DNA of 64,000 nucleotides, taken from positions 6,885 to 70,884 of the forward strand of contig CACKOU010000005.1 of NCBI GenBank assembly GCA_902601895.1. Reading direction: 5' to 3'. Within the stretch, counting starts at the first letter, position 1; every line of letters begins with the position of its first letter. A program made the position numbers and the translations under genes. Source of the DNA: an uncultured Pelagibacteraceae bacterium. Lineage in GTDB: Bacteria > Pseudomonadota > Alphaproteobacteria > Pelagibacterales > Pelagibacteraceae. Under the pieces are notes generated by a model, which saw only the letters and a list, made by a program, of their open reading frames with translations, ran no database searches and was not told the DNA's origin. Shown here piece by piece: positions 45,713-49,997 of this stretch.

Positions 45713-46720
45713 ATGAAAAAAGCGATAATAACGGGTATACTTGGACAAGATGGTGTATATCTTGCTAGATTGCTATTAAAAAAAAAATATAAAGTTTTTG
45801 GCCTTTATAAAGATAAAAATTCAAAAAATAATAAATTCTTACAAAAGAAAATTAAATATATTAAAGTTGACATAAGAGATAAAAACTCTTTAGTTAAGAT
45901 TTTAAAAAAAATAAGACCTAATGAAATTTACAATCTAGCTGCATCATCTTCAGTTAGTAAATCTTTTGATAGTCCAATTGACTCAATATTAACAAATTGT
46001 GTTGGTTATTTAAATATTTTAGAAGCAGTTAAAGAAAATTCAAAAAAAACTAAAATATTCCAAGCATCTAGCTCAGAAATGTTTGCTAATTCAAAGTATA
46101 ATTTAATTAATGAAAATACAAATTTTTCCCCAATTAATCCTTATGGTGTAAGCAAAGTAGCGGCACATTCTTTAACAAAGTTCTATAGAGAAGCATATAA
46201 TCTAAAATGTTCAACTGGAATTTTATTTAATCACGAGTCTATTCTTAGAACTGAAGAATTCGTGTCAAAAAAAATTGTAAAGAAATTATATGATATATCG
46301 ATTAAAAAAAATGGAATATTATTTTTAGGTAATATTTATTCCAAGAGAGATTTTGGATATGCGCCTGAATATGTGCAGGCAATGTGGAAAATTTTACAAC
46401 AAAAAAAAAGTGATGATTTTATTATCGCAAGTGGTAAATATTATTCTATAAAATATTTCGTAAATATTGTTTGCAAAGAATTTAAAATTCCTTTTACTTG
46501 GAAAGGTACTGGTATAAACGAACATTGTATTAATAAAGAAAATAAAAAAATTTTCGTTAAAATTGATAAAAAACTTTATAGACCCTTAGACGTCAAACCA
46601 ATTAAAGGTAATACAAATAAAGCTAATAAAGTATTAAAATGGAAATCTACTACAAATTTTAAAGATCTTATTAAAATACTTTGTAAAGATGTAATAAATG
46701 AAAAAAATTTTAATCCTTAA
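45713..46720 (+). CDS. Second GDP-mannose 4,6-dehydratase-like SDR
   Basis: GILGQDG, YNLAASSSV, QASSSEMF, YGVSK, FNHES, RDFGYAPEY. Confidence 0.88.
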   Translation: MKKAIITGILGQDGVYLARLLLKKKYKVFGLYKDKNSKNNKFLQKKIKYIKVDIRDKNSLVKILKKIRPNEIYNLAASSSVSKSFDSPIDSILTNCVGYLNILEAVKENSKKTKIFQASSSEMFANSKYNLINENTNFSPINPYGVSKVAAHSLTKFYREAYNLKCSTGILFNHESILRTEEFVSKKIVKKLYDISIKKNGILFLGNIYSKRDFGYAPEYVQAMWKILQQKKSDDFIIASGKYYSIKYFVNIVCKEFKIPFTWKGTGINEHCINKENKKIFVKIDKKLYRPLDVKPIKGNTNKANKVLKWKSTTNFKDLIKILCKDVINEKNFNP

Positions 46721-47696
46721 AAATGATAGAGTAGGTGATTTCTTTAACTCTATAAAAGGAATTAATTCAATAATTAATGAGCATAAAAATTACGAAACTA
46801 CTATTGTTTTATCGAATTATTCAAAAGAATTGTCTTTTTTATTTGATTTTAAAAATATTAAGATTGAAATTTTAAATTTTGATTTGAATTATAGAGATAA
46901 ATTATATATTTCAAAAAAAGTTATATTCGAAAAATTTGAAAAAGTATTCATTTTAGCTCCTAAAAATTTTTATTTTTATTTACCTTTAATATCTAAATCA
47001 AAATTTTTTGCTATTTGCATAAAAGAAAAAAATAAAATCAGACCATTTAAATTTTTAATAAAAAAACTTCATTTATACGCTATTAATGATAGATCTTTTA
47101 AAAAATTTGGAGAAAGTATTGAAAATTTGATCGAGAAAATTTCAAATAAAAATAATATTAATTATCCTAACATATTAAATAATAATCCTAAAATATCTAA
47201 TTTGTTAAATTATAACCTTATACATTTAAAAAAATTTGTTCATGTTCACTATAAACATAGCCTTTTTAAAAAAAATGGATGGAAATTGAACGATTTTGTT
47301 GATTTGCTTCTTAAAATATCGAGTAAAGGTTATCAAGTTATCTTAACTTCAGATTTTTGTAATTCCTATTATAATGATTTTTTTTTAAAAAAATTTTCTT
47401 TTATAAACTTTGAAACTAATTCTAAATTTGTTGATGATAGTAGTATTATTTATCTCCATAATATAACAATTAGCGATTTATTTAAAGTTATTGATTTATC
47501 AAATCAAGTTTTAGCACCACACGGTACAATGACGGTAATGGCTAGTTATCTTAAAAAAAAAGTTATAGATATATATGATATAACTGTAAGAATTAATTCC
47601 TTCAGAGAATACAAACCAACGAATAAAAATTATAGTTTTTTAATTTTAAAAAATAATACAGAAAAAATAAAAAAAAAGATTATTAATTTTTTATAA
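46698..47696 (+). CDS. GT9-like (LPS heptosyltransferase-fold) glycosyltransferase
   Basis: N-terminal MKKILILKNDRVGDF; C-terminal DL..VIDLS.QVLAPHG....ASYL. Confidence 0.65.
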   Translation: MKKILILKNDRVGDFFNSIKGINSIINEHKNYETTIVLSNYSKELSFLFDFKNIKIEILNFDLNYRDKLYISKKVIFEKFEKVFILAPKNFYFYLPLISKSKFFAICIKEKNKIRPFKFLIKKLHLYAINDRSFKKFGESIENLIEKISNKNNINYPNILNNNPKISNLLNYNLIHLKKFVHVHYKHSLFKKNGWKLNDFVDLLLKISSKGYQVILTSDFCNSYYNDFFLKKFSFINFETNSKFVDDSSIIYLHNITISDLFKVIDLSNQVLAPHGTMTVMASYLKKKVIDIYDITVRINSFREYKPTNKNYSFLILKNNTEKIKKKIINFL

Positions 47697-48644
47697 TTTA
47701 ATTTTATTAAGGGCATTATTTTTAAATATATTAGCTTCCCTAATATATCTTCTAACCATTTGTGTTGTTTTATGACCTGTCATAGCCATTATGCTTCGCT
47801 CATCAGCGCCTGAATCAGCAGCTGATGTTGCAAAACCCGACCTTAAACTATGACCTGCAAAATTTTTGTTTTCAATACCCGCTAACTTTAAATATTCTTT
47901 CATTAATAAAACTACAGATTGGTCAGTTAATCTTTTATCTGTTAATGATAAACCTTTAGAAAATCTTCTAAAAATTGCTCCAGACTTAATTTTAGAAATT
48001 TCTAACCATTTTTTTAGATTTGTAACAGGACAGTAAATTTCATTATCGAAGTAGGGTAGTCCTTTAGTCATTCCTTCTCCGAATTGGTCAGTTTTTGATC
48101 TTTTAACAGTTATTTTTAGACCCTCAGGAACAAATTCTAAATCTTCATGATCAATTGAAATGATCTCGGACCTTCTAAAGCCACCTGCAAAGCCAATTAA
48201 GATTATTGATTTGTCTCTAAGTTTTTTTATTTCCTGAGTTTTTTGTTCATTAATTACATTAATAATTGATTTTAAATGATTGATTAATATAGGTTTTTTA
48301 CCTTTCTGAATACTTCCTTTGACCCTTCTTATTCCCATTAAATTTTCAACAATGATTGGATGTTTTGTGTCTAGATAATGACCTTTAAACCTATGAACCA
48401 TGCTTATTGATACTAATCTTCGTCTTAAAGTACTGATTTTTGAGTTTTTAGATAGATGGGTAAGGTATAAGGAAACTATTTTTGGCTCTGTTGGTAAAGA
48501 ATTTAATCCATGCTTTGCACAAAAAGCTCCAAAGTCTTTAAAATCAGATTTATAAGCTCTTAAGGTATTATTTGCCTTTGAACTTTTAAGGTTATTTAAA
48601 GTTTCCTCATTAAGCGATTTTAGGTTTGTTGTCAGCTCATTCAT
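47691..48644 (-). CDS. Cre-like tyrosine site-specific recombinase
   Basis: N-terminal SAM-like domain (NTLRAYKSDF...STLRRRLVSIS..H); complete catalytic set R (GFRRSE), K (RSKTD), HxxR (HSLR), H (TGH), Y (RRY). Confidence 0.93.
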   Translation of the reverse strand: MNELTTNLKSLNEETLNNLKSSKANNTLRAYKSDFKDFGAFCAKHGLNSLPTEPKIVSLYLTHLSKNSKISTLRRRLVSISMVHRFKGHYLDTKHPIIVENLMGIRRVKGSIQKGKKPILINHLKSIINVINEQKTQEIKKLRDKSIILIGFAGGFRRSEIISIDHEDLEFVPEGLKITVKRSKTDQFGEGMTKGLPYFDNEIYCPVTNLKKWLEISKIKSGAIFRRFSKGLSLTDKRLTDQSVVLLMKEYLKLAGIENKNFAGHSLRSGFATSAADSGADERSIMAMTGHKTTQMVRRYIREANIFKNNALNKIKL

Positions 48645-48647
48645 ATA

Positions 48648-48682
48648 ATTACTATTGATAACAATTAATTATCATTAGTAAT
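48648..48682. repeat. loxP-like inverted repeat; candidate recombination site of the adjacent recombinase
   Basis: ATTACTATTGATAA-CAATTAA-TTATCATTAGTAAT: 14-bp arms (13/14 complementary), 7-bp asymmetric spacer, 3 bp from the recombinase ATG. Confidence 0.75.
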
Positions 48683-48706
48683 ATATCAAGTGATTTTAAA
48701 TGTCAA
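48678..48706 (-). promoter_or_regulatory. Putative sigma70 promoter of the recombinase
   Basis: Minus strand TTGACA (48706-48701)-N17-TATTAC (48683-48678); the -10 overlaps one arm of the inverted repeat. Confidence 0.6.
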
Positions 48707-48727
48707 ATGAATTAAACTTAAAAATTC

Positions 48728-48907
48728 ATGACTATAGATGGTGAAATTCCTACAAGCTATTTTTTAATAATATCTATAGGTTTAACTATACTGAGTTATT
48801 TGGTTTATAAAAAAAATGGGAAATCTTTAGAAGTATACTTCTTATCTTTTTTAACAATAATTTTCTATTTATCCTATTTTATTCTTATTTTTGTTGGACC
48901 CAGATAG
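48728..48907 (+). CDS. Small two-TM hypothetical protein (59 aa; not in ORF track)
   Basis: Translated by hand: MTIDGEIPTSYFLIISIGLTILSYLVYKKNGKSLEVYFLSFLTIIFYLSYFILIFVGPR*. Confidence 0.55.
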   Translation: MTIDGEIPTSYFLIISIGLTILSYLVYKKNGKSLEVYFLSFLTIIFYLSYFILIFVGPR

Positions 48908-48995
48908 TTTATTAACGCTATCCACAGCTGTTAAAAACCCTTAATTATCAACTATAAAGTGATACTAATATAATTTGCACTGTGATAATTTCATA

Positions 48996-49185
48996 AATGA
49001 ATTAAGAGGCAACTCTTAACTGACCATCTGGGGAAAAATCGAGAGATTCAAGCCCAGAGGGCAGAAAACCACGCAGAGTAGCGCTAAAATTGCGGGGTGG
49101 AAGGCATGGCGGTAGCGCATACAACGACGTGCCAAAAAACTACTGATCTTTGTACCTGAAAAGGTGCAGAGATACAGGGTTTTTT
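48996..49185 (+). ncRNA. Structured ncRNA, probably an IMES-type marine RNA
   Basis: GC-rich island in AT-rich DNA; five stems, three GNRA tetraloops (GCAA, GAGA, GAAA), loop-loop complementarity GCGCTA/TAGCGC, terminal hairpin followed by a T-tract. Family assignment is from recall and unverified; ends approximate. Confidence 0.8.
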
Positions 49186-49191
49186 CTTTAT

Positions 49192-49467
49192 ATGATCCTT
49201 AAAGGTACAAAATTTCAAATTAAAGTCTGGAAATACTTAAAAACAATTAAAAAAGGTAGTGTTTTAACCTATTCTGACGTCGCAAAGGGTATTAATAAAC
49301 CTCGAGCTGTTAGATCTGTAGCTAATGCTATTGGAAAAAACCCATATGCTCCTAAAATACCTTGCCATAGAGTAATCAGGTCTGATGGATCTCTAGGAGG
49401 ATATTCTGGAAAAGGTGGTATAAAAACCAAGAAAAAACTGCTCAAATCCGAAGGAATCTTGCTCTAA
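49192..49467 (+). CDS. ogt: Methylated-DNA--protein-cysteine methyltransferase (minimal MGMT)
   Basis: TYSDVA, RSVANA...NP....PCHRV, GGYSG; start ATG 49192. Confidence 0.9.
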   Translation: MILKGTKFQIKVWKYLKTIKKGSVLTYSDVAKGINKPRAVRSVANAIGKNPYAPKIPCHRVIRSDGSLGGYSGKGGIKTKKKLLKSEGILL

Positions 49468-49997
49468 AAACTAGCAATTCCAACGTTTTTTTTAAATTTA
49501 ACAACATTTAGTAATATAATTTTAAATTCCCCTATTAGTTGCAGCTTATAAATTGAAATCTCTAAATTAGCCCTATATTTGGGGCATTAAACGCTATATT
49601 CATAAATTGCATTACTTAGGTAATTATTAAGAAAATTATTATTTTTTTGTATATTTATATCAATTAATATAAAGAAACTTCCATATAAAATTAAAACTAA
49701 CTTTTATTATCAATAGATTTATTTTAAAATTTAGTCAAAATTGTTGATTTTATTGAATTATTGTCCCCTATCTCATAATCCAATTTTATTGTCTTTTTTA
49801 TAATTCAAATAACTGCATATTTATTGATTTTTTTTAATTACTTGAGGTTATTTAATTGATTATTTTATAAATTTTATTCCAAATTTTTTATATTATATAC
49901 AAATTAAAATATACTTGAGATAATATATAAAATGTAATAAATACAATAGTTTATATATTGTAATTAAAGTATTACATTAATATATAGTACATATATT

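Follow-up and report, generated by a model that had tools for sequence, protein, structure and literature searches.

An IMES-2 RNA gene beside ogt in a SAR11 genome: a covarying kissing pseudoknot, two chromosomal settings and a probable stand-alone small RNA

The locus studied here raises the question of which gene, if any, a short and highly structured RNA belongs to. SAR11 is the most abundant group of marine bacteria, and in the SAR11 window analyzed (the whole stretch of DNA under study, 64,000 nucleotides long) a GC-rich island stands out at positions 48995–49185, with a GC content of 46–47% against 12–33% in its flanks. Upstream of it lie a gene for a divergent tyrosine recombinase (47691..48644, − strand; PF00589 and PF02899, far below the XerC/XerD equivalog cut-offs) and a gene for a small hydrophobic protein, p59 (48728..48907, + strand; 49–97% identity in related loci). 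Downstream is ogt (49192..49467, + strand), encoding an O6-alkylguanine-DNA alkyltransferase of 91 amino acids (PF01035, 1.3e-31; TIGR00589, 2.1e-30) that consists of the C-terminal alkyltransferase domain only, with a PCHRV active site and no N-terminal domain. An earlier reading of the letters alone (hereafter the sequence-only reading) described the island as a pseudoknotted RNA resembling the IMES-type marine RNAs, considered a cis role on ogt possible and mentioned a link to the recombinase as speculation. Is the RNA a leader of ogt, a partner of the recombinase, or a gene of its own?

The identity of the element was established with cmscan. A full-length match to the Rfam family RF02035 (IMES-2) was found at 48995–49135 on the + strand (162.9 bits, E 5.8e-43, model positions 1–141 of 141), a score about three times the family's gathering score of 54.7 bits. 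It is the single non-tRNA Rfam match of the whole window. When 48650–49500 was rescanned permissively (E up to 10), no other Rfam family fell below E = 1 and no riboswitch family matched; 6S RNA, manA, IMES-1, IMES-3 and IMES-4 were rejected as candidates, as none of their models gave a match in this interval. The conserved loops of IMES-2, AGUAGCGCUAAAA in P3 and GGUAGCGCAUACAAC in P4, and the GAAA junction all fit the consensus in the cmscan alignment. The structured element at 48995–49185 is a complete copy of IMES-2, an RNA class that is already catalogued, and no new class is involved. The resemblance noted by the sequence-only reading was thus real, the element being IMES-2 proper, and its remark that a strong Rfam match would end any novelty of the family came true. 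IMES-2, an RNA without a known function, is among the most abundant non-ribosomal RNAs of surface-ocean metatranscriptomes. Weinberg, Perreault, Meyer and Breaker reportedly described it in Nature in 2009, using metagenomes and metatranscriptomes of marine origin, and the small RNAs that Shi, Tyson and DeLong reported as abundant in the ocean, also in Nature in 2009, are said to include it.

The core of the RNA (48995..49135, + strand) is composed of P1, P2 with its inner helix P2a, P3, P4 and a kissing pseudoknot, and is defined by RF02035 together with covariation of the helices and of the pseudoknot. All helices listed by the sequence-only reading were recovered where it had drawn them and coincide with the Rfam consensus structure: P1 (49002–49019) with a GCAA loop, P2 (49020–49064) enclosing AAUC-GAGA-GAUU, P3 (49068–49098), which is backed by the Rfam consensus and covariation, and P4 (49103–49133), which is extended in the Rfam consensus by G.A, C-G and G-C. 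P3 and P4 are nearly equal, with helices of 8 and 9 bp and loops of 15 and 13 nt, and GNRA loops cap P1, P2a and the 3′ hairpin P5. The minimum free energy (MFE) of the + strand is −71.4 kcal/mol (z = −7.2), and none of 200 shuffled sequences folded as well; the reverse strand folds with −56.2 kcal/mol (z = −5.3).

In order to check the helices by covariation, as the sequence-only reading had proposed, 99 distinct homologues were aligned (alignment A1). In this alignment 92.1% of the cells were paired in the structure drawn by that reading, compared with 83.4% for shuffled partners and 33–44% for slid partners. P1 to P5 all covary: we counted 573 doubly changed cells, while shuffles gave 160 ± 11, with compensatory changes at 37 pairs. 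Pairs that changed on both sides were found in every helix, at 2 of 7 pairs in P1, 6 of 11 in P2, 3 of 4 in P2a, 8 of 8 in P3, 3 of 9 in P4 and 14 of 17 in P5. Frequent U-G pairs, such as the one found at a single P4 pair in 81 of the 99 homologues, fix IMES-2 on the + strand, in agreement with the argument from G-U pairs made earlier. The fold is far from chance by its z score of −7.2, by the Rfam E value of 5.8e-43 and by the pairing in A1.

The pseudoknot consists of a kissing helix on the + strand between the P3 loop (49081–49086) and the P4 loop (49113–49118), in which GCGCUA pairs with UAGCGC (49081/82–49086 with 49113–49117/18). Both loops are almost constant within the genus of the window, so the first covariation test was weak. 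A second alignment (A2, 64 sequences) was therefore examined, to which other genera of the family had been added. Loop-loop pair 94–134 occurred as C-G in 51 sequences, U-A in 10 and A-U in 2, and pair 95–133 as G-C in 42, A-U in 19 and U-A in 2, with zero mismatches at either pair in 63 sequences. These two central pairs accounted for 33 doubly changed cells compared with 7.6 ± 2.1 in shuffles. Six distinct matched loop combinations were found, including GUACUA/UAGUAC, GUUCUA/UAGAAC and GAACUA/UAGUUC. The kissing pseudoknot of the P3 and P4 loops, pointed out earlier from loop complementarity, is strongly supported by this covariation. It is an addition to the cmscan output, as the consensus line of Infernal cannot show pseudoknots.

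The P3 loop is palindromic, and self-dimerization through it was considered and rejected. P3–P4 pairing is favored over it because in variants such as GCACUU (P3) with UAGUGC (P4) each loop can pair with the other but not with itself. Pairing of P3 with P4 between two separate IMES-2 molecules is possible. Two further contacts failed. The sequence-only reading had also paired AGUA (49077–80) with UACU (49141–44), and this complementarity is present in the window; AGCA replaces AGUA in 37 of the 99 homologues, however, and the compensating UGCU occurs in none of the 37. A pairing of CGGUAG in the P4 loop with CUACUG, spotted by eye, was discarded as the P4 loop is constant but the linker is not (AACUG and UUCUG also occur).

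The core is followed by P5 (49134..49185, + strand), made up of an A-run (49134–49139), a bulged stem (49140–49179) with a GAAA loop and six U residues (49180–49185). The GAAA hairpin that it placed at 49146–49173 and the TTTTTT after it are both present, but ACAGGG separates that shorter stem from the U-run. In the MFE fold the stem is prolonged outward by CUG/CAG, U.G and C-G to 49140–49179, and the U-run directly abuts the prolonged stem. At the 3′ end of every homologue a hairpin was found that is stable (−17 to −29 kcal/mol) and whose sequence is unrelated between genera; a U-run of at least four residues is present in 69 of the 74 distinct variants with the ogt context. The T-run was searched for directly, since U residues cannot usefully be counted behind the stem of the MFE fold, in which the A-run and the U-run are paired with each other. 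A simple terminator scan found none, perhaps because its rule is limited to 20 pairs and does not mention bulges. With a stable GC-containing hairpin and a U-run directly after it, P5 has the makeup of an intrinsic terminator and is annotated as such. In the largest subgroup with the second genomic context described below, the U-run is interrupted (GUGGUUCUCUUCC); there, P5 may be more than a terminator, or a weak one.

Does the RNA also have a promoter of its own? Upstream of it we found an extended −10 element, TGATAATTT (TGnTAnnnT; 48983..48991, + strand), and an invariant motif, AAAGTGATA (48956..48964, + strand), at about −42 to −34 relative to the predicted start. Among 122 distinct upstream regions, G-T-G-A-T is present in 121, with positions 0 and 2–4 invariant, and its spacing to TGnTAnnnT is fixed in 121 irrespective of the neighboring genes. 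In the 121 sequences anchored on GTGAT, the T of the extended −10 element occurs 99 times and its G 97 times; within the hexamer the first T is found 120 times, the A following it 92 times and the last T 109 times. At 21 nt, the distance between AAAGTGATA and the −10 hexamer exceeds that of a standard sigma-70 −35 element; the motif may serve as an atypical −35 element or be bound by an activator. The best promoter of the scan, TTATCA-N18-TATAAT at 48945–48974, was rejected, as it is not conserved in the homologues, unlike TGnTAnnnT. The predicted start, at about 48997–49000, is consistent with the start of the Rfam model at 48995. Because the upstream elements accompany the RNA whatever its neighbors, the IMES-2 unit most likely carries its own promoter region, with a start at about 48997–49000. 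Together, the promoter-like and terminator elements make independent transcription of IMES-2 the most likely arrangement.

Further upstream a DnaA-box-like 9-mer, CTATCCACA (48918..48926, + strand), differs by one mismatch from the DnaA-box consensus TTWTNCACA. A match to this consensus with at most one mismatch was found at about −90 to −70 in 117 of the 122 distinct upstream regions, in both genomic contexts, where we estimate about 9% to be expected by chance. Most homologues across genera, such as those at loci L053, L167 and L179, have two abutting 9-mers (TTATCCACA followed by yTATTmACA), of which the window keeps the first copy only. The composite two-box pattern found no further site in the window's own genome, so that no regulon can be deduced from it. 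The TTATCCACA-type 9-mers may be sites for DnaA or for another factor. It is also conceivable, though we think it rather unlikely, that the whole unit is a regulated and not a constitutive module, in which the boxes and AAAGTGATA, present at both genomic positions, tie synthesis of the RNA to DnaA or to another of the few transcription factors that SAR11 has, and ogt follows. If so, a leaky IMES-2 terminator would be the sole source of ogt transcription in the window's genus, and the dosage of this repair gene would track the activity of the IMES-2 promoter.

To which organisms is this unit confined? A 25-base degenerate pattern of the core was searched against a genome collection and matched at least 120 contigs. 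The 80 matches listed, of these at least 120, all come from Pelagibacteraceae or Ca. Pelagibacter, from single-cell or metagenome assemblies, and no viral contig matched the pattern. Using the covariance model, IMES-2 was found as a single copy per genome, in 33 of 60 genomes of the window's genus, mostly single-cell assemblies, and in 81 of 150 genomes of its family, covering 14 of 19 genera. In the sister family, the only other one in the order, two overlapping draws of 40 and 60 genomes gave no copy, and neither did 14 control genomes. In the family draw, 19 of the 20 same-genus genomes were without IMES-2, all of them about 99% complete and most of them closed; a few closed genomes of the genus carry it, for instance G259 and G173. 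Judged by these distributions, IMES-2 appears to be dispensable in many strains, including most of the sampled closed genomes of the window's genus. This contrast with the single-cell assemblies may be the reason why, for a long time, environmental sequence alone had revealed the RNA.

Divergent variants of IMES-2, scoring 62–94 bits and with a remodelled P2, were found in two genera, g13 (genomes G110, G134 and G143) and g15 (G112, G135, G144, G160 and others), and one more was seen in G301, of the window's genus (g1). These variants have a replacement for P2a, a longer P3, and loops of P3 and P4 that are changed yet mutually complementary. The sampled loci of g13 and most of those of g15 show neither of the two contexts described below; the variants occupy a third one, and could be a distinct subfamily.

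The neighbors of IMES-2 differ between genera. In the genus of the window the order is recombinase (− strand), optional small genes (+), IMES-2 (+), ogt (+) and an EamA transporter gene (−), and among the genera sampled the ogt context is limited to this genus. The other context consists of mnmA (+), IMES-2 (+) and an opposite-strand gene whose stop lies inside or just after P5. Twenty-five of the loci matched by the pattern have it, as do members of 11 other genera that were sampled; neither ogt nor the recombinase was present in the stretches fetched around these loci (the whole 8-kb locus, or about 2.5 kb on either side). In the window's genome, mnmA and the gene for the convergent protein abut without a spacer; the IMES-2 unit must therefore have changed place in this genus, and by this comparison of gene orders IMES-2 appears to have moved between two chromosomal sites. 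The convergent gene encodes a conserved protein of about 233 amino acids that belongs to no Pfam or NCBIfam family (L053:2501-3202, − strand, and homologues; G000:C4:20363-20887 in the window's own genome). Where it neighbors IMES-2, its final codons coincide with part of the 3′ arm of P5, and this hairpin may terminate both transcripts.

These comparisons bear on the recombinase, to which IMES-2 might belong as a guide or bridge RNA, as a recombination site or as part of a mobile element. The two lie 350 nt apart, the recombinase gene being divergently oriented, and the interval between recombinase and ogt varies in its genes among same-genus genomes, both of which would suit such a link. Within the genus, however, the recombinase occupies this locus whether or not IMES-2 is there, and it was kept in all 11 genomes examined that lack the RNA. 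No recombinase was found near IMES-2 in the other genera (within the 8-kb locus and about 2.5 kb on either side elsewhere), so the obligate co-occurrence that would mark a guide or bridge RNA is not seen. The presence of one IMES-2 copy per genome, the lack of a match in viral contigs and the lack of any flanking repeats noticed also speak against such a link. The recombinase thus appears to be independent of IMES-2, and we regard a functional connection, which the sequence-only reading had itself called speculation, as barely credible. The co-occurrence comparison that this reading proposed across SAR11 genomes showed that neither ogt nor the recombinase constantly accompanies IMES-2.

The interval between recombinase and ogt (48645–49191 in the window; also seen at L003, L013, L020, L031, L033 and L074) has variable gene content and a cassette-like look. 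Its tightly packed + strand gene sets include two membrane proteins of about 54–59 amino acids, a membrane protein of 113–133 amino acids, a protein of 66–68 amino acids, a GNAT-like gene and IMES-2. On the other side of the recombinase, between it and a GDP-mannose dehydratase-like gene, a 332-aa open reading frame (46698–47696, + strand) has no Pfam or NCBIfam match.

The relation to ogt is closer. As the sequence-only reading had seen, the element ends 6 nt before ogt: the ATG at 49192 lies 6 nt past the U-run, and it lies 0–11 nt past the U-run in 69 of 74 distinct variants. A Shine-Dalgarno-like motif before ogt was found in 2 of the 74, and a consensus scan of the + strand detected no promoter-like site in 48995–49331. 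In the window, ogt appears to have neither a promoter nor a ribosome-binding site of its own. We also examined 11 same-genus genomes in which ogt is present and IMES-2 is absent. At nine of these loci the start of ogt either overlaps the stop codon of the + strand open reading frame before it, namely p59, a membrane protein gene or a GNAT-like gene, or directly adjoins it; in the other two (L034 and L040) p59 ends 6–9 nt before ogt. The overlapping or abutting arrangement at the nine loci suggests translational coupling. Throughout the examined genomes of this genus, ogt thus seems to be without a promoter of its own. Since there is no room for a promoter beside IMES-2 and the consensus scan found none inside it, ogt is probably transcribed by read-through of the IMES-2 terminator, although a weak ogt promoter may be hidden inside the RNA.

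This layout is what would be expected if IMES-2 were a cis leader of ogt, a riboswitch or attenuator in which P1–P4 sense a signal and thereby set termination at P5. A structured domain, a terminator and an open reading frame follow each other, the downstream gene is apparently promoterless, its start lies close behind the U-run (69 of 74 variants), and the arrangement of IMES-2 and ogt is kept in 33 of 60 same-genus genomes. A dedicated cis-regulatory role is nevertheless unlikely, because most other sampled genera have no co-directional gene downstream of the RNA; their next gene is convergent. IMES-2 does not hold the constant position before co-directional genes of one pathway that characterizes a riboswitch. 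It is also unlikely because no pairing between core and terminator is conserved and because close relatives, to judge from their gene order, express ogt without the RNA, coupled to an upstream open reading frame. AGUA/UACU is the sole candidate for a mutually exclusive pairing of sensor and terminator, in a search of alternatives that was not exhaustive, and as the only pairing proposed between core and terminator flank it is lost in 37 of 99 homologues, none of which shows a compensating change. The P5 sequences are wholly different between genera while the core is constant, and at two loci, L009 and L098, p59 intervenes between IMES-2 and ogt. We consider a leader function for ogt quite improbable, and a cis role as a property of the family, which had been left as a possibility by the sequence-only reading, does not agree with the mnmA and convergent genes that flank the RNA, with no ogt nearby, in most other sampled genera. 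The genus-wide tight juxtaposition of IMES-2 and ogt could still have brought a local cis effect that was acquired secondarily.

If IMES-2 serves neither neighbor, its action would most likely be in trans, probably bound to a protein, an argument by exclusion. Trans action is inferred from the compact fold, the invariant loop and junction nucleotides, the single copy and the differing neighbors. Another trans-acting possibility is a base-pairing small RNA that reaches mRNAs through an exposed seed. An independent gene with promoter and terminator would fit it, and so would the conserved unpaired GAAA between P2 and P3 and the AUACAAC of the P4 loop. The most conserved loop nucleotides, however, are taken up by the intramolecular kissing helix, the other invariant single-stranded runs are just 3–4 nt long, and the GNRA loops and the equal, side-by-side helices suggest a compact tertiary fold with no open seed. 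We find this possibility doubtful.

Our preferred reading, in which we have fairly high confidence, is that IMES-2 is a stand-alone small RNA gene of SAR11 of about 188 nt, which probably acts in trans, and that ogt is transcribed by read-through. Transcription would start at about 48997–49000 at the extended −10 element, with AAAGTGATA and the DnaA-box-like 9-mers upstream, and would stop at the P5 hairpin and U-run (49140–49185). The RNA would fold into P1–P4, with P3 and P4 locked side by side by a kissing helix of 5–6 bp, and this compact molecule would act in trans instead of as a leader, probably in association with a protein. In the window's genus ogt would most likely be transcribed only through read-through of the IMES-2 terminator, and its translation would begin at an AUG that follows the U-rich tail.

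For a class that is already catalogued, the value of the comparison is modest. It adds that IMES-2 is a single-copy, self-contained RNA gene with a conserved promoter architecture, and it adds the covariation of the kissing contact, the two chromosomal positions and the conserved upstream motifs. The single copy, the putative promoter, the kissing contact, the relocation and the dispensability argue against a cis-regulatory role. The strains with closed genomes that carry IMES-2, such as G259 and G173, are now identified and could serve for functional tests.

Several known systems resemble this locus. Like terminating riboswitches and leaders, IMES-2 in the window's genus combines a structured domain, an intrinsic terminator and the start of an open reading frame within 11 nt; as a family it differs from them in having no constant downstream gene and no conserved anti-terminator pairing, and ogt is apparently expressed without it in close relatives. 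The P2 and P3 hairpins of the purine riboswitch are adjacent and near-equal like the 8 and 9 bp hairpins of IMES-2, with loops joined by Watson-Crick pairs. IMES-2 has no enclosing P1 helix, no three-way junction and no sequence similarity to that riboswitch, and its loops, of 15 and 13 nt, are larger. The closest match is IMES-2 (RF02035) itself: the window has the same four hairpins, GNRA loops and conserved loop sequences, without differences in the core. The P5 terminator and the conserved promoter fall outside the 141-nt model, and these features and the two alternative genomic positions extend what the cmscan output describes.
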